Positions 36,651-57,143 of a stretch of 64,000 nt of DNA are shown here, piece after piece. Where the stretch lies: contig CAVWBU010000032.1 of NCBI GenBank assembly GCA_963753345.1, positions 64,001-128,000 of the forward strand, written 5' to 3'. The DNA comes from an uncultured Fibrobacterota bacterium (GTDB lineage: Bacteria; Fibrobacterota; Chitinivibrionia; Chitinivibrionales; FEN-1185). Below the pieces are notes generated by a model that saw only the letters and a program-made list of their open reading frames with translations, did no database searches and had not been told where the DNA came from. The stretch's first letter is position 1. Each line of letters starts with the position of its first letter. Position numbers and translations under genes: made by a program.

Positions 36651-36688
36651 TTCTTCCTGCTTTGTCAAAAGAACTCCTAGAGGTACTC

Positions 36689-38284: not shown

Positions 38285-38330
38285 ACCGTCCATATGGGTA
38301 TGTTGACAAATTAAGAAAACATCGAGACGT

Positions 38331-38495: not shown

Positions 38496-38572
38496 GTTTC
38501 CTTGGCTCCGATCTCTGCCAATAATTAATAATAGTTCTGGTGGGGACACTAATGAGTAATCTTAAAAAAGAA

Positions 38573-38652: not shown

Positions 38653-38662
38653 CAACTTTTTG

Positions 38663-40108: not shown

Positions 40109-40125
40109 GGGGCGGTTCCCGGGGT

Positions 40126-40425: not shown

Positions 40426-40685
40426 GGCGTATTCCTTTTTTTATGTTGATAAAAGGATGATGCGCACGAATCCAGGCGCGGACGGTTCGGTGGTTTTGGG
40501 ACCGATATAGAATATAATTCTTCTGCCGTTGATCCACCCGGCCTTGGAAAGCCGGATCATGAAAAAGAACTTCACCACAGAGGCACGGAGAACACGGAGA
40601 AAGAAGATCAAGTCAAGGACAAGTACGAGATCGTTGATGCATTTGTCTTGCTGTCAACCGTCAACTGTCAACCATTGGCTTTGTT

Positions 40686-41933
40686 TTATTGCTTTTCCTT
40701 GTATTCCCCGAGTACGATGGTGCTCTGCATCGGCTTGCCCTTGCGCACATAACTTATCACCACCGAATCGCCCACGAAATAGTCGAGGAAGAAACCGCCG
40801 ATGTCCGCCGAACTGCGGATGGGCCTGCTGCCCATCTGCACGACGATGTCCCCGCGGAGCAGCTTTGCCGTCTCGCCGGGACTGTGCTTTGCTATTTCCG
40901 ACACCACGACCCCGGTCGTTTTGTCGTAGCCGAGCGCCTGCGCAAGGGGCTTGGTGAGGTCCTGCACCGAAATGCCGGTGTAGATGAGCCGGCGCTTGCC
41001 ATAGGTGATGAGCTCCTTTGCCACGCGCTTGGCGCGGTCTATGGGAATGGCGAATCCGATGCCGATTGACCCGCGGTAGCTGTCGCTTCCCGTAAAGATG
41101 AACGTGTTGATGCCCACCACCTCGCCGAGCGCGTCCACGAGCGGCCCGCCGGAGTTGCCCTGGTTGATCGCCGCGTCGGTCTGGATCATACCCTGGTAGT
41201 ACACGCCCTCGCTCGGCGCGAAGTTGCGGTCCACGGCCGAAATCACGCCCAGGGTCACCGTGGGCCGCGCATCGTTGATAAAAAACCCGAACGGGTTGCC
41301 GATGGCAATGGCCCATTCGCCTATCATGAGCTTGTCGGATTCGCCGAGCTTTGCAGAAGGGAAAGCTGCGCCTTTCACCGAGACAATTGCGAGGTCGGTC
41401 TGCGGGTCAACCCCCACGATTTTTGCCTCAATCTGGCTGCCGTCGGACAGCGTGACGAACAATTTCTGTGCCTGTTCCACCACGTGGTAGTTGGTAAGGA
41501 TGTATCCATCCTTGCTGAAGAGGAACCCCGATCCCATGCGCTCCACCTCGCGCACGCGGGGCACCACCTCGGGGCTGAAGAAGAAATCGAAGAACTCGTC
41601 CGACGAATAGGCGCGCCGCACCACCTGCAGCTGCGTCACCACGATGCCCACCACGCTCGGCGAGACCATTTTTGTGGCGCGGACGATTGCGTTTGAGCGC
41701 GACCCCGTGATGTTGTCGCTGGGGGGCGGCGCGCCGCGCTCCTCCTGGGCTGCGGAAGATGACCCGGCGTCCGCGTTCACGGCCTTTTGCGCCTGCGTGT
41801 CGCGGGACTGGTAAAGCCTCCGAAACACCTCAGCTCCTGCGATACCACCCGCGATCAGGCCGATGACAAGGAGGAGGATGTAAAGCCCGGTATTGCCGGT
41901 TTGTGATTTAATGAAATTATTTCTCATGATCAT
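40686..41933 (-). CDS. HtrA/DegP-family serine protease with one PDZ domain
   Basis: GSGF, LTNYHVV, TDLA, IQTDAAINQGNSGGPL, PDZ GDIVV. Confidence 0.95.
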   Translation of the reverse strand: MIMRNNFIKSQTGNTGLYILLLVIGLIAGGIAGAEVFRRLYQSRDTQAQKAVNADAGSSSAAQEERGAPPPSDNITGSRSNAIVRATKMVSPSVVGIVVTQLQVVRRAYSSDEFFDFFFSPEVVPRVREVERMGSGFLFSKDGYILTNYHVVEQAQKLFVTLSDGSQIEAKIVGVDPQTDLAIVSVKGAAFPSAKLGESDKLMIGEWAIAIGNPFGFFINDARPTVTLGVISAVDRNFAPSEGVYYQGMIQTDAAINQGNSGGPLVDALGEVVGINTFIFTGSDSYRGSIGIGFAIPIDRAKRVAKELITYGKRRLIYTGISVQDLTKPLAQALGYDKTTGVVVSEIAKHSPGETAKLLRGDIVVQMGSRPIRSSADIGGFFLDYFVGDSVVISYVRKGKPMQSTIVLGEYKEKQ

Positions 41934-41997
41934 TCTTTCCAGATGTTGATTGATTTTCAAATGTAAGTGATCTGCTTCTGCTTTTGCAATCTGCAAT

Positions 41998-42735
41998 CTA
42001 CATTTCAATCCCCTTGTATTCCACATAATCAAGCACCAGTCCGCAGGCCGGCGCGGTTTCGCCGACGGCTTTTCGGTTTTTGTTTTCGATAATCTCTGCC
42101 ATGGTCGAGGCCAGCCTTCCCCTGCCGATGTCCACGAGTGTGCCCACGATGGACCTGACCATTTTGTAAATGAAGCGGTCGGCGGTTATCGTAAACACAC
42201 GGAGGTCGTCCCGGTCGTCAAGCGACGCCCCGCTCACCGTGCACACCATGTTTTCGGTGGACGTGCCCGTGGCGCAGAAAGCGGAAAAGTCGTGCGTGCC
42301 CGCAAGCGCCGGGATGTTGTCGCGCACCTTTGCCCAGTCCACGTCGTGGAAGACCATCCAGACCCTTTTGTAAAGCAGTGGCCGTTTCCGCCGCGCCATA
42401 AAGTACTTGTACCGCCGCGCCACGGCCGAATACCGGGCGTGAAAGTCCGGCGCCGCCGGCCGCAGGCCGTACACGCAGATGTCGTCGTCGAGCACGGCGT
42501 TCACCGACCGCTCGCACCGCCCCGCGTCCAGTGCTCCGTCGATGTCCACGTGCGCGCCCTGGCCCGCCGCATGCACGCCCGCATCGGTGCGGCCGGCGCC
42601 CGTCACCCTGCATTCGCTGCGCACCACGGTGGTGAAGGCGGCGTTGAGCGCGTCCTGGACGCTCGGCGCGTTTTCCTGCGACTGCCAGCCGCCGTAACGC
42701 GTGCCGTCGTATTCGACGCGGAAGAAATAGCGCAT
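41998..42735 (-). CDS. truA: tRNA pseudouridine(38-40) synthase
   Basis: EYDGT.YGGWQ, GAGRTDAGVHA, FHARYSA, MVRSIVG, TAPACGL. Confidence 0.97.
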   Translation of the reverse strand: MRYFFRVEYDGTRYGGWQSQENAPSVQDALNAAFTTVVRSECRVTGAGRTDAGVHAAGQGAHVDIDGALDAGRCERSVNAVLDDDICVYGLRPAAPDFHARYSAVARRYKYFMARRKRPLLYKRVWMVFHDVDWAKVRDNIPALAGTHDFSAFCATGTSTENMVCTVSGASLDDRDDLRVFTITADRFIYKMVRSIVGTLVDIGRGRLASTMAEIIENKNRKAVGETAPACGLVLDYVEYKGIEM

Positions 42736-42985
42736 GTGATCCTTTTTGGAATACTACGCTTTGAGGGACGACAGCCTTGATTCTTATTCTGGACGCAAGA
42801 GCCGATATCAGTCGTGACTTTTCCTTGCATGCAGATCCTGAGAAATTTGACCCTATAAAATAGTATTGGCTCTGGGGGTATCCAAAGAAGCTTGGCTTAG
42901 GCTGGGTTCGGTGACAGTCTGGGTCTTTGACCGGCATCAGATTACAGAGGTAGTAACAAACAGGTTTTCAATACCGGCCACAATG

Positions 42986-43013
42986 TTGATAATTGTAGCT
43001 ACAAATACTATTT
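42986..43013 (+). promoter_or_regulatory. TA promoter region with palindromic operator TTGTAGCTACAA
   Basis: perfect 12-bp palindrome at 42993-43004, between TTGATA and an AT-rich -10-like sequence. Confidence 0.55.
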
Positions 43014-43019
43014 TGACTC

Positions 43020-43271
43020 ATGCCGAAATGGAACGAGTTCGTCCCTGAAGAAATCGAATACGATTTTGAAAATGAGGAACTGCATGAACATTATATCACC
43101 ATTGATGAGGCTGCAGAATGTTTTCACAACCGGTATTCGGTCCAAAGGAACAAGAAGTTTAAGGACCGGTACAAGCTTCATGGAATAACCGACAGCGGCA
43201 GAAAGCTTACGGTAATCTTTCAGTTGAAAAGGCTTGGTGTCGTGAGAATTATCACCGGATGGGAGACGTGA
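43020..43271 (+). CDS. BrnT-like type II toxin (DUF497)
   Basis: N..LHEH.IT.DEA.ECF..RY...G.T.SGR.L.VIF..VRIIT. Confidence 0.8.
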   Translation: MPKWNEFVPEEIEYDFENEELHEHYITIDEAAECFHNRYSVQRNKKFKDRYKLHGITDSGRKLTVIFQLKRLGVVRIITGWET

Positions 43272-43275
43272 AACC

Positions 43276-43560
43276 ATGCGTATGATTCGAAACAAAAAAA
43301 CCTCGAAGAAAGAAAAAACAATTGACAATGCCGTCATGGAAGCCGCATATGACCATGACCAGTGGGAAAAAGAATTACCCGTCACCCCGAAAACGGTTCC
43401 CACCTCGATCCGACTGAGTCCGCGCACGATCCGCCGGGCGAAATTGTTCGCGCGCGTCCATTGTCAGCGCGGATATCAGAGCTGGCTGAAGAAGATCATC
43501 GAGGATCGCATCGATACGGAGTATGAGATTTACAAGGGAATACGCGGGACCGGAGCGTAA
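43276..43560 (+). CDS. BrnA/CopG-like antitoxin
   Basis: TSIRL...I..AK..A...GYQSWLK.II RHH-type motif; immediately downstream of the toxin. Confidence 0.75.
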   Translation: MRMIRNKKTSKKEKTIDNAVMEAAYDHDQWEKELPVTPKTVPTSIRLSPRTIRRAKLFARVHCQRGYQSWLKKIIEDRIDTEYEIYKGIRGTGA

Positions 43561-43635
43561 CAAGGGGATGGGTGCGCCTGAAATAATGGAGCCGGCGGCC
43601 GTACTAATCAACCAACAATATATTCTCGACTGGTC

Positions 43636-44763
43636 TCACACATTACCTTTCACTATCCTGTAGCAGAACACCTGAAACCCCGCCTTCGAATCATCAAACC
43701 TTCCGGTCTTGATGCCGGTGTCGAATTCCGCAAGAAGGGAGAAGATCCGCCGGTAATTCTCATAAGTGAATGATACCGCCTGGTCGATGAGCCGCGGCTT
43801 GATCACCGCCGGATACAGGCGGCCCGCCTGGCTTTCGGTAAAGATCCCCGCACCGAGGGCGAGTGCGAGCGCCGCCTCATTTTGCCGCGGCCTCGAAAAA
43901 GACCGGTAGTTCCCGAGCAGGGTGGGATTCGCTTTTGCAAACAGGGAAATCCTGAAAAGCGACCAGAAATGCCTGAAGATTGCGCCCACGTACGGCGGAA
44001 GATAAACGCTTCCGGTGTAGATGGATTCGATAATCTCCAGGCCGCGTGCCATGTTTTTTTCACCGAGCGCCTGGGCCAGTTCGAATTGCGTGGCCTCCCG
44101 CGTAGCTCCTGCAACGGCGTCGATCACATCGCGGCTGATTGCGGCTTTTGGCTCAAGGAAAAGGTCCAATTTCTGAAGTTCCGAATACAGGACCGCGGTG
44201 TCCGCGCCCACAAGGTCGACGAGATGCTCCGCGTCGTCCTTCGAAATGCGCCTGCCGAACAGGTGCGGAACCTGCGCCTCCACCCATTCGGCCATCTTGT
44301 AGTCGGGCGGTCTCGGAAATGTCTTCACGCAAAACCGCTCCGGCGCTTTTTTCGCAAACCCCTCAAAGGATTCGAGCCATGCCGAGTATTTTTTCGACAG
44401 CGCCGAATCTTTTGTCTTTCTTCCGCCCTGCACCTTGTCCGTTTCCATCACGACAAGCGCGTCGGGCACGTCGCATGCGAAAAGTCCGGTGAGCCGTGCG
44501 AGTTCGTTTTCGTCAAGAAGATGGACGTCCGGGATGATAAAGACGCGCAGCGGCGACAAAAGCGACGGCGTGATGATGCGCTCGCAGAATTCATCGAAGG
44601 CGGCGTCTTCGGCGTTGAAGCGGTGCACCTCGGCATCGGGCTGCTTTTTTTTCACCGCGGCGATAATGGCGGCGCGTTCGAGTTCGCGGCTCGTGATATC
44701 GTCGCCGGCAAGCAAGACAAAACGGAGCAGCAAATCGCCGGAGCTGGAAAAGATATCGCTCAT
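43636..44763 (-). CDS. holA: DNA polymerase III delta subunit
   Basis: TPSLLSP.RV, LV.LVG.D...L.SELQKL, FELAQAL, D..IKTG. Confidence 0.88.
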   Translation of the reverse strand: MSDIFSSSGDLLLRFVLLAGDDITSRELERAAIIAAVKKKQPDAEVHRFNAEDAAFDEFCERIITPSLLSPLRVFIIPDVHLLDENELARLTGLFACDVPDALVVMETDKVQGGRKTKDSALSKKYSAWLESFEGFAKKAPERFCVKTFPRPPDYKMAEWVEAQVPHLFGRRISKDDAEHLVDLVGADTAVLYSELQKLDLFLEPKAAISRDVIDAVAGATREATQFELAQALGEKNMARGLEIIESIYTGSVYLPPYVGAIFRHFWSLFRISLFAKANPTLLGNYRSFSRPRQNEAALALALGAGIFTESQAGRLYPAVIKPRLIDQAVSFTYENYRRIFSLLAEFDTGIKTGRFDDSKAGFQVFCYRIVKGNV

Positions 44764-46028
44764 GGGATGAGGTTTTCGATGGCGTGATTTGAGGCGCTTA
44801 TTGTCGCGGCAAAGGCGGCCTGCGCGTTTGCAAAGCGGACTGCCTGGTCGCCGAGCGCCGAGGCCACCGCGGCCGCAAGGCCTTCGGCGCTGTCCGCAGG
44901 AAACGCGACGCCGGCGGCGATCAGTTCGTCGCCGCTTTCCTTCTGCGTCCGGTAATTAGGACCAAAGACCACCGGAATGCCGAATTGCGCCGCATCCCAC
45001 ATGTTGTGGCCGCCGGTGGCGTCGAAAGTTCCCCCCACGAAAGCGGCATCGGCGATTTTGTACATGGCCTCCATAATGCCCATTTTTTCCACCATGCACA
45101 CGTCCCAGCCTTTTTCGGCTTCGGCGTCGGTCAGGCGCTTCAGGCCGTTGCCCAGTTCGGCGGCGAGTGCGTCTGCGTCCCTGATGTGCCGCGGCACCAC
45201 GATGCACTTGACGGGAAACGACATGCGCCTGAGCGCGGCAAGCGCTCCGGCGATCACCGCTCCTTCGCCCGGATGCAGGCACCCTGCCGTAATGCAGCGC
45301 TCACCGGCCGCAAGTCCCATTTTTTTCCGGAGCGAGGCGCGTTCTTCTGCAGAAACCGGATGGACCGCGGCGGAGCGCTTCAGGTTCCCGGTCACGCGGA
45401 TGCGCGAGGCAGGAACGCCGAGCCTGGCGAACCGGTCCGCATAGGCCTGGTCCTGCGCAAGGACGATGTCGGGGTGGGAGAACAGAGGGGAAAGGAGCCA
45501 TGCAAACCGCCGGTACCACATCAGAGATTCCTCTTCGATGCGGGCATTGACAAGCCCCACGGGGACGCCCGCCATAGCGCAGGCCCACAGCATGCAGGGC
45601 CAGAGCTCGGTCTCAAAAATCCACACGCGGGACACGCTGTATGTTGACAATACGGAGCGCATGAGCCGCACCGAGTCGAGCGGGAGGTATCCCGCGGCGA
45701 CGACGTCGTGGCCGGCTGCCCGTGTAAGGTAGTCGACGCCGGTGCGCGTGGTTGCGGTAAGCAGATAGCGCTGGCCGGGGTGCTTCGACCTGAGAATATC
45801 GAGGAACCGCGACAGCAGCTTGGCCTCCCCGAGGGACGCTGCGTGCAGCCACACCGATTGCGCTGCCGTGCCGCTTCCTCGCGGCGGGGGAACACCCCTG
45901 CGCTCGCCAAGGTTCCATTGCCTTGACAAGTGCGATGAATGGAGGGCGAGCGCGGCCAGAGTGCCGCCGGCTTCCATGGCGGTGCTGTAGGCGAAAATGA
46001 GCAGGCGGAGCGGTAGATGGGTCATCAT
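44760..46028 (-). CDS. waaA: 3-deoxy-D-manno-octulosonic acid (Kdo) transferase
   Basis: VWLHAASLGE, T.T.TG, PLD, ETELWP, VNAR, GNLK, VPRH, FVGGTF..GGHN. Confidence 0.93.
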   Translation of the reverse strand: MMTHLPLRLLIFAYSTAMEAGGTLAALALHSSHLSRQWNLGERRGVPPPRGSGTAAQSVWLHAASLGEAKLLSRFLDILRSKHPGQRYLLTATTRTGVDYLTRAAGHDVVAAGYLPLDSVRLMRSVLSTYSVSRVWIFETELWPCMLWACAMAGVPVGLVNARIEEESLMWYRRFAWLLSPLFSHPDIVLAQDQAYADRFARLGVPASRIRVTGNLKRSAAVHPVSAEERASLRKKMGLAAGERCITAGCLHPGEGAVIAGALAALRRMSFPVKCIVVPRHIRDADALAAELGNGLKRLTDAEAEKGWDVCMVEKMGIMEAMYKIADAAFVGGTFDATGGHNMWDAAQFGIPVVFGPNYRTQKESGDELIAAGVAFPADSAEGLAAAVASALGDQAVRFANAQAAFAATISASNHAIENLIP

Positions 46029-46281
46029 TCGGCATCAACTCACTGTCTTTGCGCCTGCGCCGGCCTGGTGCGGAGCATGGAGTGTCTCACGTGCGGCGCC
46101 TTCGGGTGCTCAGGGGAGGGTGATCGGGTACGATTGCACGAAAACGGCGCTTCGATAAGCGCCGCGCTTTGATAATATAGTAGTTGAATGCGAGGCCGTG
46201 CCACGGCAAAAAGGATCGGCAATCAGAAATCGCCTGCACGAGCGTATTCTTCCATATATTTATGGAGCTGTAACATTGGGT

Positions 46282-46311
46282 TTGACATTTTTTTACAGCC
46301 AAACCTATATT
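46282..46311 (+). promoter_or_regulatory. sigma70-like promoter
   Basis: TTGACA-N18-TATATT upstream of the lipoprotein/porin/GH57 run. Confidence 0.5.
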
Positions 46312-46465
46312 ATCACAACTATTTGCAGGGCATTTGGGCGGACGAGCGGGCTTTTCTTCCCTCTCACGACGAAGTGGTTCCGACCAACGCAGACGGCATG
46401 CGGAAAAAATCCTGTTTTCACTCATGCCTCCATCGGTTTTTCATCATGACTCCACGGCAAAGCGA

Positions 46466-48136
46466 ATGAACAAGAAGAGTTTCGGGGCGTCGATCCTTCT
46501 GCTTCTGAGTCTCGGCCTCTCGTGCTCGGTGTTTTCACCGGACACGAACCTTGGACGGGACATCGTGACGGGCGTCGATTCTTCCGTCACCGACCTCAAG
46601 TACGGATATGTCAAGGTGGACAGCATGTTCCTCGCCGTATCCGGGGCCAGAAGCGTCGTGGTTCCGGGGGGCGACACAAGCGTGTACGTGCTGCGGTCAG
46701 GCGTCCATCCCAGTCAGCTCGTGGCGGGAAGAATAGGGGACGACAGTGCCGTCGCGTATGCGGAATTTGACGTTACGAACACCATCCTCGCCACCCTCCG
46801 CACCGGATGCAGCCAGAACAGGGTGGACAGCGTGTATCTCCTCCTGCACTATAATCCAACCATCAACGATACTACGTTGAAGGACTATCCGGATTCAATG
46901 GTGAAGATCAGCGTGTTCTCGTGCCAGCGCAAGTTTTATCCGAGGGCGCGAAACAATCTGACAACGCCCGACATCGCGTTTTCGGACACGCTCACCTTCT
47001 CGCGCAAGAAGCCGGACACCACGTTCTACATTCCCCTCGGCCCGGATATCGTTTCTGTCCTCAATAGCGCGGTGAATGACACGGCCACCTATGTGCCCCA
47101 TCTTGCGGAATCGGACACCACCGTGGGATGGTCAAAGGGCGATTCGACAAGGCCGGTAAGGCCCGATACCGCCTACATAGAGGATTCGGTCATCCAGGTC
47201 TTTTCCGACACCTTCACTCATGCGACCATCACCGGCCTCCATGCTGCGATGCAGGGCGACACCGCGATCATTGGCTACACTGCCGGCTCGACGCCCGTGT
47301 CCGACACCGTTCCCTATGTGCGGAGCGTAATCAGCCTGATCAGCTCCAACCAGGATTCGTTGTCGATTGTCAATGACTTTGTCTGGCGGGAAAGGACAAT
47401 CCGGCAGCGGCTCGAGTACGATTCCGCCCAGAAGTACATCGCCGCGATCCATATCTACGCCGCCCCCGGCAGCGGGCTCGTCCGTTTCGTGGGACCGCCC
47501 GCGTTCAGCATCAGGTACCTCGATGCGAACTGCGACACCGCCGCGTCCACGAAGGGAACCTTGACAAGCACAAGTCTCGGGTACTATTTCGACATGACGT
47601 CGACCGAAGAAAATGCCATTCCGTCCGATTCCCTGGTGGTGTCCTGGCAGGCCGACCGTTTCGTGGAAATCCCCATCAACCTCGCGCCGCTGTGGAGCTT
47701 CGCGGCAGGCGGCGGCAACGGGAGGAACTACGCCGTTGTGCAGAACGCAACATGCTTTCTCTCGGCCGCGCTTCCCCTGATTGAAAGGGCGGGCGCCGAC
47801 ACCACCAACCGGAAAATCGTGTACGGCCTGCTCGACCACCGCATCACCGACTCGCGGGCGCATAGCAGCTCTACGCGCGATTCTCTTACCGCCATTCTGG
47901 CGTCCGGACGCATGCCCAACGACAGCATCGTTCTGGATACCGTCAGGTCCAATGTTTCCTCGACGATTTCCCTGCCGGTCACCATTTTTGCCCAGAGCAT
48001 GTTCGAAGAGAACCCGAGGCCGGCAACGGCGTATCTCTATGTGTTTGCAAGGACCACAAACGATTTCGCGCGGGCGGTGATCCGGAAACCCGCAACCGTC
48101 AAGTTCACGGCCCTGTTCTCCAATCCGCAGAAGTAG
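46466..48136 (+). CDS. large lipoprotein of unknown function
   Basis: lipobox LGLSC; Ser/Thr/Asp-rich, beta-strand-rich. Confidence 0.75.
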   Translation: MNKKSFGASILLLLSLGLSCSVFSPDTNLGRDIVTGVDSSVTDLKYGYVKVDSMFLAVSGARSVVVPGGDTSVYVLRSGVHPSQLVAGRIGDDSAVAYAEFDVTNTILATLRTGCSQNRVDSVYLLLHYNPTINDTTLKDYPDSMVKISVFSCQRKFYPRARNNLTTPDIAFSDTLTFSRKKPDTTFYIPLGPDIVSVLNSAVNDTATYVPHLAESDTTVGWSKGDSTRPVRPDTAYIEDSVIQVFSDTFTHATITGLHAAMQGDTAIIGYTAGSTPVSDTVPYVRSVISLISSNQDSLSIVNDFVWRERTIRQRLEYDSAQKYIAAIHIYAAPGSGLVRFVGPPAFSIRYLDANCDTAASTKGTLTSTSLGYYFDMTSTEENAIPSDSLVVSWQADRFVEIPINLAPLWSFAAGGGNGRNYAVVQNATCFLSAALPLIERAGADTTNRKIVYGLLDHRITDSRAHSSSTRDSLTAILASGRMPNDSIVLDTVRSNVSSTISLPVTIFAQSMFEENPRPATAYLYVFARTTNDFARAVIRKPATVKFTALFSNPQK

Positions 48137-48145
48137 CGTGATGCA

Positions 48146-49381
48146 ATGAAAAGCAAGATCATTCTTGTGGTGTTTTGGGCGGGCGTTGGGGCCTCATGCT
48201 GGGGCCAGTCCCTGCTCGGGCTCACCTATCCCTTCGGCGTGCCGATGCAGGAAAATTCCGGGATGTCGCTCACCATGGGCGGCGCGGGTTGCGCGGTCGC
48301 CGCGGAGAACAACGTGATGCTTCTCAATCCGGCAAACCTCGGCACCATCGACAGGACGGTCCTGTCGGCCCTGTTTTCATTCGATTTCACGCAAATCAGC
48401 GAATCCTCATCGCATGACAATTTCTATTCCGCAGACCCGGTCCAGATTTCCATCGGCGTGCCGTTCGGGGTCGTGGGAACGTTCGGTCTCTCGTTCGACC
48501 AGCGCAGCAACATCGCCGCGTACTACAAAGACTCGGCGTCGCTGGTGTACAACGGCGACGCTTCGTGGTGGGTTGAGCAGGGGCTGTCGGCGCGCGGAGG
48601 GATTGTCACATGGGAGGCCGGATGGGGCAGGACCATCGGGAAGCTCGCCCAGGTCGGAATCTCCTACGAGCGGTTCTACCTGTTTGACGAACAGACAAAC
48701 CTGTCCCAGATGTTGCTTCCGCTCGTGTCATCGGCGATTTCCCGGGACAGCACGACGGTTGTGTGCAAGGGCAACGGAGTCCGGGCGGGCGTTGATGTTC
48801 CCGCGGGCCCCGTGCGGATCGGGATAACGGGCGAATACTACTTCACGAGCCCGGCATCGTCTACAAACGCGGTGTATGCAAACGGGCTTGACTCGGCGGT
48901 GGCGAATTCCGCCTCGTCGCTTTCGTTTTACCTGCGTCTGCCTCCGTCGCTTACCGTTGGGCTCAGCTGGGACATTTCGCCTGAGTGGCTCGTGGCGGGC
49001 GATGCGTCGTTTGTGTTCTGGCAGGACGCCCTGATCCAGGGACCTCTTTCCAAACCGGATTTCACCACCGCGGCCGGGTTCTCCCTCGGCGCCCAATACA
49101 TTCCGGCGCCGAACCTTCTCACGCCGAAGTACGCGGAGACCATTCGCTACCGTGCAGGCGTGCGCTTTGCCCAGCTGCCCTCAAAGCAATCGTACGAATA
49201 CGCAGTGAGTCTCGGGACCGGCCTTCCCATGGGTAAAGGCACGGGAATCCTCGATGTCGCGCTCGAGGCCGGGCGGCGCGAAAGCGGACAGTTTGCCGGA
49301 TACAGCGAAGACTTCCTGCACCTTGTGTTCGGGTTCAACGGAGGACACAAGTGGGTGCAGTCCGCACGAAGCACCTATTGA
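48146..49381 (+). CDS. outer-membrane beta-barrel (FadL/PorV-like)
   Basis: SLTMGGAG.A..NPANL motif; alternating strands; YRAG, G.GLP. Confidence 0.75.
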   Translation: MKSKIILVVFWAGVGASCWGQSLLGLTYPFGVPMQENSGMSLTMGGAGCAVAAENNVMLLNPANLGTIDRTVLSALFSFDFTQISESSSHDNFYSADPVQISIGVPFGVVGTFGLSFDQRSNIAAYYKDSASLVYNGDASWWVEQGLSARGGIVTWEAGWGRTIGKLAQVGISYERFYLFDEQTNLSQMLLPLVSSAISRDSTTVVCKGNGVRAGVDVPAGPVRIGITGEYYFTSPASSTNAVYANGLDSAVANSASSLSFYLRLPPSLTVGLSWDISPEWLVAGDASFVFWQDALIQGPLSKPDFTTAAGFSLGAQYIPAPNLLTPKYAETIRYRAGVRFAQLPSKQSYEYAVSLGTGLPMGKGTGILDVALEAGRRESGQFAGYSEDFLHLVFGFNGGHKWVQSARSTY

Positions 49382-49407
49382 CGCACCCCTTCGCAAGCGA
49401 GGTGATT

Positions 49408-50241
49408 GTGGCGGTACATAAGAAAAACAACAGCACCAAAGCCGCGGGAAAAGAGCGCGCCGGGACGGCGAAGAAGGCCAAGAGGACTGTCCGCGCGCCC
49501 TACCGTGCAAAGAAGGCTCCCGCCGGCGCAAAGCCGCGCGCCGCGGCCCGTTTACGGCCGGCGCGGAGGACGGCTGCCGCAGCCGCCTTTGCAATAAGGA
49601 ATCCACCGCGTCCGCCGCGGCGGATTTCGCCGTCGGCTCGTGCCGGGCAGGGCGTGGTGAATTTTCCCGGCCTGCCATTCCGAAACGGCAAAGGGCCGGC
49701 GGGCCCCAAGTACTTTTTCTCCACCGATATCCCCGATAAATACAACGAAACCTATCTGCGCGCTCTTCCCAGGGACCCGTTGTGGCTCTTTGCCTACTGG
49801 GAACTTTCGGGCGAAACAGTGGAGCTGTTGCGGCGGCACGTGGGCGGCGACGCCTTCGCCGGTTCCAAATGGGTGCTGCGCGTGCTCGACGTCACCGACA
49901 TTGTCTACAACGGTTCCAACGCATGGCGGCAGGCGGACGTCGAGCTTGCGCCGTACGCTTCCTCGTGGTACGTCAAGGTGTGGGAGCCGGGCCGGTCCTA
50001 CCTTCTGCAAGTGGGGATCGTAACGTCCGACGGCAGATTTTTCTCGGCCGTCAATTCGAACGCGGCGCAGATGCCCAGAAACGCCGTGTCGGCGGTGCTC
50101 GACGAAGAATGGACCACCGCCTCCACCGACGAGCTCATCCGGCTTTCCGGGGGCCTCTCCGGGAGGCTGCTCGGCGCGAGCGAGAATTCCTCCGGGGCCT
50201 CCGCAAGCGGTTCCGGGTCCGGCTCGGGCTCCATGTCGTGA
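49408..50241 (+). CDS. DUF4912-domain protein
   Basis: basic Lys/Ala/Arg N-terminus; P..Y.ET.L..LPRDP.W.FAYWE, LRV.DVT, SWY, SN...P. Confidence 0.85.
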   Translation: MAVHKKNNSTKAAGKERAGTAKKAKRTVRAPYRAKKAPAGAKPRAAARLRPARRTAAAAAFAIRNPPRPPRRISPSARAGQGVVNFPGLPFRNGKGPAGPKYFFSTDIPDKYNETYLRALPRDPLWLFAYWELSGETVELLRRHVGGDAFAGSKWVLRVLDVTDIVYNGSNAWRQADVELAPYASSWYVKVWEPGRSYLLQVGIVTSDGRFFSAVNSNAAQMPRNAVSAVLDEEWTTASTDELIRLSGGLSGRLLGASENSSGASASGSGSGSGSMS

Positions 50242-50273
50242 AACGCCCCAGGGCGGCTGCACCGGAGAAGGCG

Positions 50274-51881
50274 ATGGAAATAACTCCCCGAAAAAACGAT
50301 CCTCGTGGGCACGTGTGCCTCGTGCTCCACGCCCACCTTCCGTACGTGCGCCATCAGGAATGCGAGTACTTCCTCGAGGAAAACTGGCTGTTTGAGGCCA
50401 TCACCGAAACGTACATCCCGCTGCTTGCCGTTCTGGAGAACTGCGCGGCCGACCGCGTGCCCTTCAGGATAACCATGTCGATGACGCCCCCGCTGGCGGC
50501 CATGCTGAGGGACGCGCTGCTGCAGGAGCGGTACGTGCGCCATATCGACCGTCTTATCGAGCTTGCGAAAAAGGAATGCGTCCGCACGAAGAGCGACCCT
50601 TCGTTCAACCGGACCGCGCGCATGTACCTCGACAAGTTCACCATGTGCAGGACCGTGTTCGTGGACGTTAACAAGTGCGACATCGTGAGGAATTTCCGGA
50701 AGCTCCAGGACCAAGGCGTCCTCGAAATAATCACCTGCGGCGCGACGCACGGGTTCCTGCCCACCATGCAGTTCAACCCCAATGCGGTGAAGGCGCAGGT
50801 GGAAGTGGCGGTGCAGTCCTACTTCGAGACGTTCGGCAGGAACCCGGTGGGCATGTGGCTTCCCGAGTGCGGCTACTACAACGGCCTCGAAAAGATTCTC
50901 GAGGCCGCCGGCATCCTGTATTTCTTTACCGACGCGCACGGCATCCTGTTTGCCGAGCCGAGGCCCAAATACGGGGTGTTCGCGCCCGTGTACTGCGCGG
51001 GGACCCATGTCGCCGCGTTCGGCCGCGACATCGAGTCGTCGAAATCGGTGTGGAGCTCGAAGGAAGGGTATCCCGGCGACCCCGACTACCGTGAGTTTTA
51101 CCGCGACATAGGGTTTGACCTCGACATCGACTATGTCCGGCCGTACATCGATCCCATCGGCATCCGCATCAACACGGGCATCAAGTACTACCGGATCACG
51201 GGAAAAACCGACCGCAAGGAACCCTACAACCACGAGGCAGCCCTTGCAAAAGCTGCTCTCCATGCGGGAAACTTCGTGTTCAACCGGGAAAAACAGATCG
51301 AATATCTCGCCTCCATCATGGACCGGAAGCCCCTCATCGTCGCGCCGTACGACGCGGAGCTGTTCGGCCACTGGTGGTACGAAGGGCCCGACTGGCTCAA
51401 CTTTCTTATCCGCAAAATCGCGTTCGAGCAGAACACGCTATCGCTGTGCACCGCGTCGGACTACCTTGCCGCCAACCCGCGCAACCAGAGCTGCAGCCCG
51501 TCGTTCTCGAGCTGGGGCTTTAAGGGGTATTCGGAGGTGTGGCTCGAGGGAACCAACGACTGGCTGTACCGCCATCTTCACAAAATGGAAGAACGCATGG
51601 TGGACTCCGCGCGCCGGTTTCCCGACGCCGCGGGCGTGTCGCGCCGCGTCCTCAACCAGATGGCCCGTGAACTTCTGCTTGCGCAGTCGAGCGACTGGGC
51701 CTTTATCATGAAGACCGGCACCATGGTGCAGTACGCGGTGCGGCGGTCAAAGGAGCACATCGCGAACTTCAACCGGCTGTTCGACGAGCTCAGCGGCGGA
51801 AGCATCGACGAGAATTTTCTGTCGCTTCTCGAATCGCACAATAATATTTTTCCAAATATCAATTACCGGGTGTATGCTTAG
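50274..51881 (+). CDS. GH57 1,4-alpha-glucan branching enzyme (DUF1957)
   Basis: HAHLPYVRH, EAITETYIP, GMWLPECGY, PYDAELFGHWWYEG, ELLLAQSSDWAF. Confidence 0.95.
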   Translation: MEITPRKNDPRGHVCLVLHAHLPYVRHQECEYFLEENWLFEAITETYIPLLAVLENCAADRVPFRITMSMTPPLAAMLRDALLQERYVRHIDRLIELAKKECVRTKSDPSFNRTARMYLDKFTMCRTVFVDVNKCDIVRNFRKLQDQGVLEIITCGATHGFLPTMQFNPNAVKAQVEVAVQSYFETFGRNPVGMWLPECGYYNGLEKILEAAGILYFFTDAHGILFAEPRPKYGVFAPVYCAGTHVAAFGRDIESSKSVWSSKEGYPGDPDYREFYRDIGFDLDIDYVRPYIDPIGIRINTGIKYYRITGKTDRKEPYNHEAALAKAALHAGNFVFNREKQIEYLASIMDRKPLIVAPYDAELFGHWWYEGPDWLNFLIRKIAFEQNTLSLCTASDYLAANPRNQSCSPSFSSWGFKGYSEVWLEGTNDWLYRHLHKMEERMVDSARRFPDAAGVSRRVLNQMARELLLAQSSDWAFIMKTGTMVQYAVRRSKEHIANFNRLFDELSGGSIDENFLSLLESHNNIFPNINYRVYA

Positions 51882-51936
51882 GAGTGATCGAGGATATTCG
51901 CCACAACAGACTGCGTCTTAACAGAAGGAGAGGACC

Positions 51937-52710
51937 ATGAAACGGTTTGCAATACTCGCGGCTGTGGTTCTTGCGGCATGCGGTGCGGCAGTGGGACAGC
52001 AGAAGGAGACGTTCGACATTTACGGTGTCCTGGGATACGGCTTCGGGATTGGAGGCAGAGACCTCGGGGCGTCGCAGACATTTTCAGGAGGAACCCTTAC
52101 TGAGAAGACTGATAACTATATCAACTACGGAGCTGGACTGAAAATCGAGGGGGGCGCGAGCTACAAACTCATGCAGCATTTGTATGGCCAGGCTGCGCTC
52201 TGCTATTCCAATGGACTGTTCGGCATCAAGAAGGACGTGAACCAAGTCGGGGTCGATGAGGTGACCGATCAGTATTCCTTCTCTACGTTCGGCATAAAGG
52301 TCCTTGCTAAGCCCACATTCCAGGTATTTGATCTTTTCAACGCCTACACCAGTTTCGGTATCGGGTTGTATTTCGCGTTTTCGTCCATCGACCACAAGGA
52401 AACGGCCGGCGGCATGTCTGCAAGAGCTGACGACAGCAACTGGCCAAGCCTGGCGTTTACCGGCGCGCTCGGATTGGAATATCCTCTCAACCGAAGCGTG
52501 GTACTTTTCGGCGAAGTGTATTGCGAAGAGATGGGTTTCATGCTGCATGAAAGGACGGTGTCAAATTCCAATTACCCCGCCGGCGATCCGTGGGCCAACG
52601 GAACAACTACCTTTGAGGCGAATTCAAAAGACCCGAATATTAAAACACCAGAAAACATTCCGGGCTCCAATGCGGCCATCCGCGTGGGTGTCAGGATTCC
52701 GCTATTATAG
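51937..52710 (+). CDS. outer-membrane beta-barrel protein
   Basis: signal peptide; amphipathic strands; C-terminal AIRVGVRIPLL; RBS AGGAG. Confidence 0.75.
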   Translation: MKRFAILAAVVLAACGAAVGQQKETFDIYGVLGYGFGIGGRDLGASQTFSGGTLTEKTDNYINYGAGLKIEGGASYKLMQHLYGQAALCYSNGLFGIKKDVNQVGVDEVTDQYSFSTFGIKVLAKPTFQVFDLFNAYTSFGIGLYFAFSSIDHKETAGGMSARADDSNWPSLAFTGALGLEYPLNRSVVLFGEVYCEEMGFMLHERTVSNSNYPAGDPWANGTTTFEANSKDPNIKTPENIPGSNAAIRVGVRIPLL

Positions 52711-52749
52711 ATTCTGTTCATTCAATAAATAATTCTTTACAAAAGATTT

Positions 52750-52788
52750 AGGCGCTCCGACGTTTTCACAGCGGGGCGCTTCTATTTT
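52750..52788 (+). terminator. probable intrinsic terminator
   Basis: AGGCGCTCCG..CGGGGCGCTT stem followed by CTATTTT. Confidence 0.5.
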
Positions 52789-53020
52789 CACCTCGGCCTT
52801 CGCACTTTGGGGGTCGGGAGGTTCTCACTATCGTTTCGCAAGGGTAAGGCAGTGGTGCTTTGCACCATTTATTATGTCACTTGCCCTTTCACTCCCGAGC
52901 CCAGACCCACTTTGTTGTCACTTGCGTTCCCCAGGGCAAGGTAGTTGGTGCTTCGCACCAGATATTATGTCTCTTGCCCTGTCAGCAGCGAAAGAAAGTA
53001 GGCAAAGAACGCCGCGCCTG

Positions 53021-53153
53021 CAGCGCCGCAACAACCCCTCGGCCTCCGGGCCGCTCGTGAACTCACCCGGCAGGACAAGGGCTTTACTTTGCATTAAGAT
53101 GCCGGGCTCGAACAGCACGAGCGGCCAACCCTCCGGCCTCGGGGGCGGCGCTG
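53021..53153 (-). other. long interrupted hairpin of unknown type, back-to-back with module B (locus 9)
   Basis: nested stems CAGCGCCGC/GCGGCGCTG, GGCCGCTCGTG/CACGAGCGGCC, CCCGGCA/TGCCGGG. Confidence 0.55.
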
Positions 53154-53241
53154 ATGGCGGAAGGAAAAGCGGACAAGTCATTCGAATCTTCGCAAGCCGC
53201 TATTGACAATTGCGTAATGTTCCCCTGTTTTTCAACTACCG

Positions 53242-53362
53242 CTCTTGGGTGCCCCCACACAGCACCATGGTTCTGCAACCGCCTCCACTCGGGGTGCACC
53301 CAGGAGGGGGTAGCGGAGGACGCCGAAGGCGGCTGAAGCGAGGGGGAAACTTCCCCCACAAA
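53242..53362 (+). repeat. structured repeat module B (locus 9)
   Basis: GGGTGCCCCC..GGGGTGCACCCAGGAGGGGGTAGCGGAGGACGCCGAAGGCGGCTGAAGCGAGGGGGAAACTTCCCCCAC. Confidence 0.85.
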
Positions 53363-53363
53363 A

Positions 53364-53726
53364 TTATTTCTTTCTTCTCTCACTCATCTCCACTGCCACA
53401 CTCTTCGCATATCGCAGCGCCTGTGGTTTGTCAACCCTCACCGTCGCGCCTGTCACGCGCTGGTCTTCCATCACAATCTCCAGCACTCTTGCGGCAAGTT
53501 TCTCAAGAAGCCGATATCGTGAACCTTCAATCTCTGCCATGATTTTTCTCTTGAGTGCCTTGTAATTTACCGTATCGGAAATCGAATCCGTTTGAGCTGC
53601 CTTGGATGCGTCGAACTCAAACGAGAGGTTGATGATCACATCTTGTTTTACGTCGCGTTCCCATTCGTTGTCGCCGATCACGGTGCGGAGAAGCAGGTCG
53701 ACGATCGACAGCTTTGCAAAAGGCAT
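53364..53726 (-). CDS. folB: dihydroneopterin aldolase/epimerase
   Basis: IG..EWER..KQDV, D.I.DTVNY, LLEKLA, VRVDKP.A. Confidence 0.9.
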   Translation of the reverse strand: MPFAKLSIVDLLLRTVIGDNEWERDVKQDVIINLSFEFDASKAAQTDSISDTVNYKALKRKIMAEIEGSRYRLLEKLAARVLEIVMEDQRVTGATVRVDKPQALRYAKSVAVEMSERRKK

Positions 53727-53824
53727 TGAAATCCTCCCCTGAAAATGACTGCCTCCCGTAAAGTGGACGGGCAGGGAATTATTTTACAGTGGTCAAGGGT
53801 ATCCGAAAAAAAACAGGTTCCATC

Positions 53825-55855
53825 ATGAAAGATACTACAAAGCCGCGTCGGCCGGAACTTCTCGCGCCCGCCGGCACCGTGGAGTGCTTCCGTGCGGCCA
53901 TTGACGCGGGCGCAAACGCCGTGTACCTCGGGCTCACCGATTTCAACGCGCGGCTCCGCGCCCGCAACTTCACCATGAAGACCCTCTCATACGCGGTGCC
54001 GTTCGCGCACGCAAGGGGCGTGCGGGTGTATGTGACATTCAACACGCTTGTCAAGCAGGCGGAGCTCGGGCGCGCCGTTGATTTCCTGTACCAGATCGAG
54101 CAGATCGGCGTGGACGCGGTCATCGTTCAGGACATGGGAATCGCGCGGATTGCGGCCGCGGAGTTTCCGCGCTTGCGCCTGCACGCGAGCACGCAGACGG
54201 CCGTGCACAACAGCGCGGGCGCGGACGCCTGCAGGCGGCTCGGATTCCGTCGCGTGGTGCTTGCGCGCGAGCTCACGCTCGCGGAAATCGGCACAATATG
54301 CGCTGCCTCCAAGATCGAAGTAGAGGTGTTCGTGCACGGCGCACTGTGTTATTCGATTTCGGGCGAGTGCCTTGCGTCAAGTTTTTTCGGCGGATCGAGC
54401 GGCAACCGCGGCAGGTGCACGCAGGTGTGCAGGCGCGCGTTCGACAGGCTGCCGACTGCGAAGGGCGCAGCGCAGGATATTTTTTCTCGCCCAGCGACCT
54501 TTCCGCAGTCGACTCGGCTGCCGCAATTGGCGCGGCAGGCGTGGCGAGCCTCAAGATCGAGGGCCGCATGAAGGCGACCCAGTACGTTCGACGCCGCGAC
54601 AGGCGCTTTCCGGATGGTGCTTGACGATCCGGGAAAAACGGAAGAGGCCAAGCTGCGGCTGTCGCGCGATATGGGGAGAAGGAAAACAAGGCTTTTTCTT
54701 GACGGCATTGTTCATGACGGGATCATCGACCACGTGAACCCGTCGGGCACGGGAATTCCCCTCGGCACGCTTGTTAAAGTTGACGGACGGGAGATCGTCG
54801 TGGCGGCCGCGGAGCGGCCCGGAGCAGGCGATCTGATACGGGTGCACCCGAAGGATGGGACCGAAGGAGTGACGGCGGCCGTGGAGAGCGTTACCGTCAA
54901 AGGAGACGAGGTACACATCATCCTTGATAAAGTCATTGAGTGCGGTCCCGGTGATTCGGCATATCTCGTCGGCTCCGAGAAATCGGCGGGGAAAGGCGAT
55001 ACGAAGTTCGACGTAAAGCCCGCGGGGTTCCGCGAAAACCTCCGGGACAGCTTTGCCATGGCGCGCCGTCACAGCGCGCCGCCTCCGGTCCAGGCAAACC
55101 GCGACCGCCGGCTGTTTGTCAGAATAGACTCGTTTGACTGGCTTCCGCTGCTTGACGCGCCGGACATTGGAGGAGTAATTTGCGCTTTCGACAAAGATGG
55201 CGTGCGGCGTCTGGCGGGTGATGAAGAGGCGAAGAAAAAGCTCGGTCGCGCCGCCTATGTCGAGCCGCCGCCGTTCATAGGGGAAGGTGAGCTTGCGGAA
55301 TGGCGGGGGATTGTGCGCGAGATGTGTGCCGGGGATACATTCGGCCTGATGGCCGCGAACCTGGGGCATGTTCCGCTTGCCGCCGGCATCGTGCGCGTGC
55401 GGGCCGACTTCCAGCTGTGGTGCCTCAACCGGGCGGCGCAGGCCGCGTACCGCGGCCTCGGCATGAAACACTTCACCTATTCCCTCGAAGACGACTCGAT
55501 GAACATCCGCGAATGCGCTTCACAGAACGGAATGATGTATCTGTTTACGCACGTGCCGCTGTTCGTTTCCAGGATAAAGCCGGCGGTCGAGCCGGGTGCG
55601 CGCTTGGTTGACCGGTTGGGGCGAAAGACGTTTGTCGCGGAAAAACATGGGCTGCACTACCTTGTGGCGGAGGAGACGGTGTGCCTTTTTCACAAGCGCC
55701 GAAGGCTTGAGGAACTCGGCATCCTCACGTTCTGCGTTGATCTGAGTTTCATGGAGCCGGACGGGAAGGTTCTGGGTGAGATTCTGGATTGCTATACAAA
55801 CGAGAAGAAGTTTCCGGGGTCGTGCCTTTTTAATTTCAAGGGCGGTCTAAAATAG
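53825..55855 (+). CDS. U32-family protein (RlhA/TrhP-like), two apparent frameshifts near 54450 and 54590
   Basis: PELLAPAG, GANAVYLG, HASTQ, VVLAREL, EVFVHGALC..SGEC, NRGRC.Q.CR; then SPSDL and SLKIEGRMK in another frame. Confidence 0.88.
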
Positions 55856-55875
55856 CTCTTACAGAGATGATACTG

Positions 55876-56348
55876 TTGGTGGGGGAAGTATCCCCCTCGC
55901 TGCGGCCCGGCGCTACCTAACAACTCAACTCTCGTCAATCGCGCCGGTCCTTCGCTACCCCCTCCTGGGTGGCCGCCTTGACAAAGCGGTAGCAAAACCA
56001 TGTATTGCTGTGGCGGCACCCACGGAGAATAGTTGAAACGTTGAATAGTTGAAAAGCCAATACCAGAAAACTGGACAAAGAAAAACAAGTGTCATTGCGA
56101 GCGCAGCGAAGCAATCTCCCAATGATTTTTACCTAAAAGAACCTTGTCTGATTTGCTGCGAATGCCGATTGGCGTGAGAATGTAACTTGACGGAATAGAG
56201 TTCTTCTGCCGCGCGTTAGGTGGACCGGAGGGTGAGCTAGAGCGAATTGCCGGCCGACCCCGGCCGAAGGCCATCGGGGCGGTCCGGCAACGAGGCGAAC
56301 AGCCGAGCCCGCAGGGAGACCGACCCCGCGAAGCGGGGGAACGCCCAA
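55876..56348. mobile_element. bipartite structured repeat, locus 10: B (-, 55876-56027), REP-like element (56090-56120), A (+, 56207-56348)
   Basis: back-to-back modules; 55876-56120 is an inverted homolog of 4965-5222. Confidence 0.6.
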
Positions 56349-56372
56349 ATCTTCTTAAGAAATTAATTTGAA

Positions 56373-57143
56373 TTATAAGTGTTGGCCCTCAGGCGGCACA
56401 TCGGGCAGGGGACTCATGTTAAAGTAGAGCTTTACAAACAGGGTAAACGCCTCTTCGAATTTCTTTCCGTACGACACTTCCGGGTTGCGGCCCGGGTTGT
56501 CGAGCTCGAGCTTCTGCCACTCCTTCAGCTGATACACCAGTTCCCTCGATATGATGCGCAATTTGATGATCTGGTTGTTCTGCGTCTGCCACGCATGTAT
56601 CCGCGCGTCGGATTTGGGAGAGGTGAGCGAGATGTCGAAGGCCGAGTCGGGGATGCAGATGCTTTTCGGCAGGGCGTAGGGAGAGTTGCGCGCCGCGCAA
56701 TACAAGAAGTAAAAACCTTTCAGGAACCGCGGGAAGAACGCGTCGAGGTACAAAAGCTTGTCCCACCGCTCGTGCTGCAGGTCGCGCTCGAAGGTCTCGA
56801 GCGTCGGAATAAACGTTTTGACCACGCGGTTGAGAATGTCCGCCTCAAAACTTGAAATCATGAATGCCTTGTCGGGCGGCTCATCGTGCATGATTTTCTG
56901 GCGCCCGTCCTTGGTCACCTTCACTTCGAAGTCGGTGACCGGCGCGATAAGGACGTAGTACGATTCGTCTTCGTCGGAACCGCCGAAACTCACCTTCACT
57001 TTTTCAAATTGATGGGTCTCGTCGTTGAAGGAGACGTTGAGCCGCGCAAGAGGAATTCCGTAGGACGTGCGTTTGCCCGGTGTTTCCGCGCCCGCGAGGG
57101 AGAGCAGCGCAATGATCGCGATGAGTAGGATCTGAGGAACCAC
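56373..57143 (-). CDS. exported hypothetical protein
   Basis: signal-like N-terminus (ILLIAIIALLSLAGA); host codon usage. Confidence 0.7.
   Translation of the reverse strand: MVPQILLIAIIALLSLAGAETPGKRTSYGIPLARLNVSFNDETHQFEKVKVSFGGSDEDESYYVLIAPVTDFEVKVTKDGRQKIMHDEPPDKAFMISSFEADILNRVVKTFIPTLETFERDLQHERWDKLLYLDAFFPRFLKGFYFLYCAARNSPYALPKSICIPDSAFDISLTSPKSDARIHAWQTQNNQIIKLRIISRELVYQLKEWQKLELDNPGRNPEVSYGKKFEEAFTLFVKLYFNMSPLPDVPPEGQHL

Follow-up and report, generated by a model that had tools for sequence, protein, structure and literature searches.

GNA-capped folds on opposite strands of a two-armed intergenic repeat in an uncultured Chitinivibrionales bacterium

Introduction

The pneumococcal BOX element (boxA-boxB-boxC), bcr1 of Bacillus cereus, and the ERIC and Correia repeats are modular, high-copy and intergenic, and their predicted folds are conserved with compensatory changes. 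They measure about 100-200 bp, consist mostly of one long imperfect hairpin and are reported to be transcribed. The composite repeat described here, designated A-B, is like them in these general properties and fills hundreds of gene gaps in the genome of an uncultured bacterium of the Chitinivibrionales (GenBank assembly GCA_963753345.1). The analysis concerns a stretch of 64,000 nt of this genome (contig CAVWBU010000032.1, positions 64001-128000; G000:C32:64001-128000 in our own numbering), hereafter the window, in which the 517-nt gap at 55856-56372 is occupied by repeated DNA of this family. To our knowledge, BOX, bcr1, ERIC and Correia are not described as having either a DNA-type repertoire of GNA loops or two unlike multi-helix arms arranged as mirror images.

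The d(GNA) mini-hairpins are described as far more stable than their RNA counterparts, with examples from the phage G4 origin, ssiA and the phage N4 promoter (PMC13037366). The C-G closing pair is given as important for their stability (PMC3201870). In the description of the Streptomyces 3' overhangs (PMC5449611), seven palindromes with GNA loops and sheared G:A pairs extend over about 180 nt and can enter into alternative long-range pairings.

Selection maintains each arm of the A-B repeat as a multi-helix fold formed by a single strand, the one that has its 3' end at the tip of the element. Since this folding strand runs 5' to 3' outward from each arm, the folding strands of A and B are opposite, which is supported by the data below. 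The folding strand is marked by C-G-closed GNA triloops, GNA-plus-one loops and G.A oppositions.

Fold of module B

The segment 56207-56348 is the core of module B, one arm of the composite. Two nhmmer rounds against the assembly (4.52 Mb, 55 contigs, 55.9% G+C, 94.26% complete) yielded 422 copies of B and 293 of A, the strands being used equally for each. Small contigs (C2, C3, C4, C9, C10, C11, C39, C43, C44, C50, C51, C53, C55 and others) match parts of larger ones at 94-99% identity. The assembly is therefore a mixture of haplotypes from one population, and the module counts are slightly inflated by these near-duplicates.

MAFFT with RNAalifold on 70 mixed copies returned almost no structure and an all-against-all column scan was too noisy; covariance models were used instead. 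The B model, R1 (183 positions, 42 modelled pairs), was built from six B copies of the window. It was searched against 841,012 bases, made up of the window and 40 regions picked for copy richness, and the best 150 of its 187 matches were aligned. In these copies, 90.9% of the cells of the 42 pairs are standard, against 77.9% after shuffling, and 30 of the 42 pairs show changes on both sides. None of 500 shuffles reached the observed value in any of five measures, and sliding the partners by one to three columns lowered the pairing to only 32-54%. R1 matches the copy in the window at 56196-56362 with 162 bits. Its parts are as follows.

56213-56344, + strand: B fold, with closing helix GCGTT (56213-17) paired with AACGC (56340-44)
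56219-21/56319-21, 56225-26/56314-15 and 56230-32/56308-10, + strand: long-range stem, GGT with ACC, CC with GG and GGG with CCC, respectively
56233-56246, + strand: hairpin P2, TGAGC(TAGA)GCGAA, with tandem G.A/A.G in the stem and a YNRA-type loop
56248-56289, + strand: long hairpin P3 (helices 6 and 7), with tip GGCC(GAA)GGCC at 56262-56272
56294-56304, + strand: hairpin P4 (helix 8), GGC(GAACA)GCC, replaced by GGCC(GAA)GGCC in other copies
56308-56316, + strand: CCCGCAGGG, the 3' strand of the long-range stem, with GCA in the internal loop opposite GGA
56324-56338, + strand: hairpin P6, CCCCGC(GAA)GCGGGG, differing in length between copies

The closing pair covaries, being UA in 114-118 copies and CG in 30-32. 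The long-range stem is broken by purine-rich 3x3 internal loops (GGA opposite GAG, GGA opposite GCA) and opens to a junction bearing P2, P3 and P4; the variable P6 branches near its base. All five pairs of P2 (helix 5) change on both sides, and its main loops are CAGA, TGGA, CAAA, TAGA and CATA. P6 (helices 9 and 10) is 98-99% paired, with double changes at all pairs. With DNA parameters, the folding energy of 56207-56348 taken alone has a z-score of -1.56 for the + strand and of -0.18 for the - strand, which is suggestive only.

One sequence that a first-pass annotation of the window had listed among the GNA hairpins behaves differently. Local pairing within CCCGCAGGG can be drawn in the window copy, but across the copies it amounts to 67.1% standard cells, the shuffled mean being 67.0%, and 249 of 500 shuffles are as high. 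The halves covary with distant partners (UA 74/CG 69 at columns 40-351; GC 79/UA 38 at columns 53-343), in long-range helices that are 98.3% and 91.3% paired and contain double changes. CCCGCAGGG is not a conserved hairpin; it is part of a covarying long-range helix.

Loops and mismatches of the folding strand

The hairpins quoted in the first-pass annotation were all located on the strands it had claimed. GGCCGAAGGCC stands at 56262 (+), 7966 (+) and 9922 (+) in B copies matched on the + strand, as well as at 14830 (+) in an A copy matched on + and at 9626 (-) in an A copy matched on -. CCCCGCGAAGCGGGG is found at 56324 (+), CCCCGAAGGGG at 36538 (+), GCTGCGAAGCAGC at 7998 (+) and GCCGTAGGC at 7663 (-), the last within an A copy matched on -.

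The four terminal hairpins of the 150 aligned B copies give 592 loops, among them 252 triloops, 258 tetraloops and 50 pentaloops. C(GNA)G makes up 174 of the 592 and TNC only 7. The tetraloops include 4 GNRA, 1 UNCG and 28 GNAB, and 41 of the pentaloops are GNRNA. GNA loops recur in three of the hairpins: at the tip of P3 in 134 single-tip copies (GAA 45, GCA 26, GGA 4, GTA 2, together with TGT 22), in P4 (GAA 33, GAATA 19, GAACA 17, GGA 12, GAAC 11) and in P6 (GAA 27, GCA 11, AAA 8, GGA 4, GTA 4).

A genome-wide count of loop types by strand, proposed together with the original observation, came out in its favour. When all 422 B copies were scanned for perfect stems of at least 4 bp with 3-nt loops, 385 of the 1040 triloops were GNA and 20 were TNC; 373 of the 385 were closed by C-G (GAA 220, GCA 78, GGA 59, GTA 16). 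Minimum-energy folds of the 362 B copies of at least 150 nt (60 shorter ones were dropped) gave 293 GNA and 8 TNC on the model strand and the mirror image on the other. The sense-over-antisense margins of nearest-neighbour folding were similar with RNA and DNA parameters. Distinct hairpin 11-mers were also counted to discount copying, and there were 38 with GNA against 12 with TNC (binomial p 3e-4), the middle base being A in 16, G in 12, C in 6 and T in 4.

The background has no such bias: outside the modules, C(GNA)G and C(TNC)G each account for 152 of 6326 triloop hairpins with stems of at least 5 bp. In 1128 ordinary, module-free co-directional 3' flanks, GNA makes up 20 of 209 triloops. 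Terminator-like hairpins are few in these flanks, which hold 104 perfect hairpins with a T-rich tail; GNRA occurs in 6 of the 24 tetraloops among them.

The modelled B pairs contain 235 G.A oppositions against 46 C.T; frequent G.A oppositions had been noted in the first-pass annotation. G.T (71) and A.C (58) are both rare among the 6031 cells, G.T reaching 1.2%; with one pair holding 27 A.C cells omitted, G.T stands at 70 and A.C at 31. Among 48 independent pairs of copies at least 90% identical, single changes gave 23 G.T, 15 A.C and 29 other mismatches, next to 18 compensated double changes. The GNA caps are confirmed as real, and as lying on one chosen strand of a two-armed repeat.

Fold of module A

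The A model, R2, was built from seven copies of the window and has 169 positions and 28 modelled pairs, the variable middle of the module lying outside it. R2 matches 132 places and, within composites, always the strand opposite to B. The modelled part is 88.4% paired, with double changes at 12 of the 28 pairs, and is less well supported than B. Perfect stems in the 293 A copies carry 65 GNA and 10 TNC loops on the A-model strand, the ratio being reversed in the orientation of the composite. In 250 folded copies, the model strand gave 34 GNA against 5 TNC with RNA parameters and 43 against 6 with DNA parameters. Distinct A 11-mers number 16 against 8 (p 0.15), which is not significant alone, and a perfect GNA hairpin is present in only 65 of the 293 copies. 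The claim that the loops are specific to the outward strand, and therefore opposite in A and B, holds for A as well, but it is weaker there.

Architecture of the composite and its position relative to genes

A lies directly upstream of B in a single fixed arrangement for 210 of the 422 B copies, other arrangements occurring only 3 times. With this fixed order and an oriented tract between the modules, the element is a composite of A, an 8-nt tract and B. In the gap under study it is laid out as follows.

55856-56372: intergenic gap of 517 nt between the convergent open reading frames 54614-55855 (+) and 56373-57143 (-)
55860-56041, - strand (the folding strand): module A, R2 match of 148 bits; nhmmer match 55863-56109
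Outer hairpin of A: GGGGGATACTTCCCCC, adjoining the stop codon of the + open reading frame 54614-55855
56032-56055, + strand: 8-nt tandem tract of three units, GTTGAAAC GTTGAATA GTTGAAAA, between A and B
56094-56115, + strand: 22-nt spacer palindrome ATTGC-GA-GC(GCA)GC-GA-A-GCAAT, with its own GNA loop flanked by G.A/A.G oppositions
56170-56212, + strand: conserved unstructured block 5' of the B fold, with TGGCGY, TTGAC (56187-56191), GAAnAGAnTTC and TGCCGC
56345-56360, + strand: outer end of B, with CCAAA and then a T-rich tract

The 8-nt unit GTTGAAAN forms 122 arrays of at least three units genome-wide. Near these arrays, B is found on one side and in one orientation in 98 of 98 cases, and A likewise in 85 of 88; 17 arrays have neither A nor B nearby. 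A related 8-nt repeat, (C/T)GTCAAC(N), occurs in the window at 12816-12847, 19871-19902 and 40643-40674. The spacer palindrome has 11 copies with the exact core GAGC(GNA)GCGA, in which N takes all four bases; 10 of the 11 lie within A or A-B loci, all in the B-sense orientation.

In the block upstream of B, the position frequencies over the 422 copies are 85-98% for TGGCG and 87-95% for TTGAC. By our own reading, this block contains no -35/-10 pair at standard spacing, and the spacing of TGGCGY...TTGAC fits neither a sigma-54 nor a sigma-70 promoter. A Bacteroidetes-type -7 motif was likewise rejected, TAnnTTTG not being enriched upstream of genes (57 forward, 43 reverse). TATTTT and TATATT are enriched in this position in the genome.

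The ends of A and B have in common only TTGGKG ... CMCCAA. On the folding strand, both arms finish with CCAA and a tract of about 10-15 nt, in which T makes up 50-81% in B (positions 4-13 after CGCCC, 365 copies) and 45-60% in A. These tails could be U-tails or, equally, reflect a preference for A-tract/T-tract targets.

The modules prefer gene 3' ends and convergent gaps and abut the genes at a median of 14-21 nt after the stop codon. With neighbour orientation taken from our own crude gene calls, 49 lone B modules run with their co-directional neighbours and 44 against them. The folding strand of A is antisense to such neighbours in 28 of 34 lone copies and 75 of 104 composites. Distances from A to B between 400 and 6000 nt show no preferred size that would indicate an autonomous A-gene-B element.

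Two further features of the window are apart from the repeat. Seven to ten tandem units of 144 nt (48 codons) with 60-88% identity at 2991-4504 have the appearance of a reiterated protein domain. Just upstream of this array, 3142-3294 consists of poly-A stretches of tens of bases with short unique interruptions, possibly an unusual tract of low complexity or an artefact of assembly.

Distribution, turnover and candidate partner enzymes

The B model matches 19 of 81 Chitinivibrionales genomes, including four of the five other species of the genus. These four have at least 33 matches each. The five congeners differ in the Y1 transposase (Y1_Tnp, PF01797) and in reverse transcriptase (RVT_1, PF00078) as follows.

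G065: B-model matches present; 8 Y1 matches; reverse transcriptase present
G061: B-model matches present; 2 Y1 matches; reverse transcriptase present
G063: B-model matches present; Y1 weak only, 24-28 bits; reverse transcriptase none
G062 (73% complete): B-model matches present; Y1 none; reverse transcriptase none
G064 (same genus, 99% complete): B-model matches none; Y1 none; reverse transcriptase none

The gap orthologous to that of the window also carries an A-B composite in G062 and G065, though of other subfamilies. The G062 copy is 93% identical to non-orthologous copies of the genome under study, and the same-locus copy ranks only 149th of 263 hits with 74% identity; the flanking genes are 80-88% identical. 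In one syntenic gap, G064 has about 110 nt and no module against about 470 nt here, the gene ends being too different for a base-exact comparison. Within the assembly, haplotype contigs differ in length at nine places, and modules are involved in seven. All four of the strain-level differences that were aligned are block replacements, and in one of them a breakpoint coincides precisely with the 5' start of the A fold. One search of sequencing runs listed 14 carriers, none of them recorded as RNA. Contigs from four DNA runs of other metagenomes, compared over 36400-56399, break at the repeats, with joints linking different copies; they contain no empty site, and nothing can be concluded from them. 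The other subfamilies at the orthologous gap and the block replacements between haplotypes show the family to be under renewal or exchange in several species.

Single-stranded DNA or RNA

The first-pass annotation had proposed that each end is recognised as folded single-stranded DNA on its own strand. A fold of one strand, opposite in A and B, was borne out; that the folding molecule is DNA is only modestly favoured over RNA, and sequence alone cannot settle the matter. The leaning to single-stranded DNA comes from the DNA-type loops, from a G.T count barely above that of A.C in B and from a folding strand free of gene direction; DNA folded with like complexity also has a precedent in the Streptomyces 3' overhangs (PMC5449611). 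Tentatively, the fold may act while the DNA of the arm is transiently single-stranded. Such a state would arise as the repeats are copied, exchanged or moved in the course of their spread and renewal, and the 3'-ending strand would owe its stability and its recognition to the compact GNA mini-hairpins. By analogy, the arms would then resemble the 3' overhangs of Streptomyces telomeres and single-strand initiation signals, not the end of an HUH transposon.

Several observations weigh against this view. The fold is elaborate: about 125 nt separate the strands of its 5-bp closing helix, it has a four-way junction, and its purine-rich internal loops are conserved. RNA shows such architecture more often. 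On the folding strand, a T-rich tract, possibly a U-tail, stands at the end of both arms. In A, the mismatches are RNA-like (G.T 421 against A.C 100), although most of the G.T pairs come from a single helix with variation on only one of its sides. Lone modules have no orientation bias with respect to GC skew (p 0.12 for B and 0.28 for A; contigs of at least 30 kb, |skew| at least 0.01), a bias that single-strand transposition of the IS200/IS605 kind would predict. Y1_Tnp, the TnpB zinc-ribbon domain and RVT_1 each have 0 matches in the 94%-complete genome, and of the four other congeners rich in the repeat, two lack Y1 or have only fragments of it. Neither R1 nor R2 has a match in six loci of about 2.1-3.6 kb (reaching about 1.5 kb) around Y1, Y2 and IS110 genes. 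The four block replacements show no clean empty site or target duplication. Finally, paired sites differ 2.4 times less than unpaired ones between close copies, which is non-discriminating, as either nucleic acid would give it.

A possible though less probable reading is that the arms are transcribed outward, from the centre or by read-through, and form a compact structured RNA serving, for instance, as a 3'-end cap, insulator or protein scaffold, the GNA loops and G.A oppositions then being RNA features. The many helices, the long-range covarying stems and the purine-rich internal loops are in line with it, and so is the composition of the modelled-unpaired B positions (32.5% A, 36.4% G). GNRNA pentaloops can mimic GNRA, and they are the prevailing pentaloops of B. 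The T-rich tract after both arms, the G.T excess of A, the closeness of the modules to gene 3' ends and the failure to link an enzyme acting on single-stranded DNA to the modules point the same way. The loop repertoire speaks against RNA, as C(GNA)G is dominant while GNRA and UNCG are nearly missing from the tetraloops, and G.U is about as rare as A.C in the B pairs. Lone B modules are indifferent to the orientation of genes, the A folding strand is mostly antisense, and promoter spacing upstream of B is not convincing. The T tract begins at least 6 nt past the closing helix of B and is thus not that of a canonical terminator. Rfam gave 0 matches at the gathering scores across the whole window, and a search of 55800-56420 at E<=10 returned only 7 bits to a human long non-coding RNA model.

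A bolder form of the single-stranded DNA reading seems unlikely at present: A-tract-B would be a new kind of bacterial mobile or self-renewing DNA whose two unlike arms, as telomere-like single-strand folds with GNA mini-hairpins and sheared G.A pairs on each 3'-ending strand, protect an excised or unwound intermediate or prime its copying, served by machinery other than HUH enzymes, reverse transcriptase or TnpB.

The link to HUH enzymes that had been suggested for the hairpins found no support in this genome. Under that explanation, the arms would be REP-like or IS200/IS605-like ends recognised by an HUH tyrosine transposase (RAYT or TnpA). Two unlike arms, inverted and joined by a linker, are indeed arranged as in BIMEs and REPINs; Y1 genes exist in the genus, and the genome itself holds one Y2 (IS91-type) gene and one IS110 gene. 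However, the Y1 domain is without a match here and in G062 and weak in G063, and no module lies near any of the Y1, Y2 and IS110 genes examined. The ends of IS200/IS605 elements fold on one and the same strand, but A and B fold on opposite strands; the modules have no replication-strand bias and are multi-helix folds of 170-200 nt, not palindromes of 20-40 nt. G065 contains an IS200-like element of 553 bp encoding a 144-aa Y1 transposase (positions 1392-1944 of L058, G065:C5:144714-148076). Six of the Y1 matches in G065 are full-length at 144 aa, five of them equal in score, and two compared copies share the 553 bp at 100%. Its end hairpins, CCCCAGACT(CC)AGTCTGGGG and GCCGCCGAC(TCCT)GTCGGCGGT, are ordinary, with CC and TCCT loops, and have no likeness to A or B. 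Recognition of the arms by an HUH transposase is accordingly improbable.

It is similarly doubtful that the preference of the loops for one strand is in itself functionless, being due to founder inheritance or to purine-rich composition of the strand, with only the stems selected. The copies are related, so raw counts overstate their independence; the distinct hairpins of A give only 16 against 8, and purines prevail throughout the unpaired parts of the folding strand. Yet the bias persists among distinct B hairpins, where the middle base is free and G and A are fixed. Convergence on C(GNA)G is seen in three different hairpins whose stems covary, and a third small palindrome, that of the spacer, has all four GNA variants.

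A retron-like RNA/cDNA hybrid (msr/msd), which had been offered as a more speculative alternative, would account for structured non-coding elements with a strand-specific fold, but it is hardly credible, since retrons are single loci, hundreds of copies stand here without an adjacent gene, and no RVT_1 match exists in this genome or in the repeat-rich G062 and G063.

If single-stranded DNA is the folding molecule, the fold would exceed in complexity every DNA fold known from chromosomal repeats and would indicate that DNA is moved or renewed by a route not yet recognised. If it is RNA, the arms would form a large class of RNA missing from the catalogues, with loops of an unusual, DNA-like kind. 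Several uncultured Chitinivibrionales carry repeats of the family in hundreds of their gene gaps, and the loop and mismatch statistics provide a concrete prediction, testable at the bench, either way. G064 serves as a natural contrast genome in the search for a gene accompanying the repeat.

Comparison with known systems

The BIMEs and REPINs of enterobacteria and pseudomonads resemble the A-B repeat in genomic habit: they are high-copy and intergenic, consist of two unlike palindromic units inverted about a short linker, prefer gene 3' ends and convergent gaps and are patchy among relatives. Their units are hairpins of 20-40 nt, whereas those of A-B measure 170-200 nt and comprise at least seven helices with long-range pairing, and the linker here is an 8-nt tandem array. 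REP sequences are moved by RAYT, whose gene usually has the repeats at its flanks; a Y1/RAYT gene was not found in the present genome by PF01797. In the non-autonomous elements (PATEs) derived from IS200/IS605, both end hairpins lie on the same (top) strand and insertion favours the lagging-strand template, unlike the opposite strands and the lack of GC-skew bias in A-B. Miniature inverted-repeat elements of DDE transposons have terminal inverted repeats and target-site duplications; the ends of A-B share only the short motif given above, and its four aligned differences are without duplications.

The d(GNA) motif itself, a C-G-closed three-base G-N-A loop on a G+C stem, is present in B. Single-strand initiation signals (the G4 origin, ssiA of RSF1010 and the promoters of the N4 virion RNA polymerase) are described as having C-G-closed GAA, GGA or GCA triloops on a defined strand of DNA that is active when single-stranded (PMC13037366), and the A-B repeat has triloops of this kind on its folding strand. 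The signals are single sites of phages or plasmids with a known primase or polymerase, and no such enzyme is linked to the modules here.

Streptomyces telomeres, with which parvoviral terminal hairpins may be grouped, are described as true ends of linear replicons, served by Tpg and Tap and alike at both ends. The modules differ from them in being present in hundreds of copies, internal to the chromosome and between ordinary genes, and in that A is not the same as B. The likeness to the telomere 3' overhangs, as these are described (PMC5449611), extends over several properties: palindromes packed into about 170-180 nt of the 3'-ending strand, hairpins capped by GNA with sheared G:A pairs, alternative long-range and local pairings, and two ends that fold on opposite strands.

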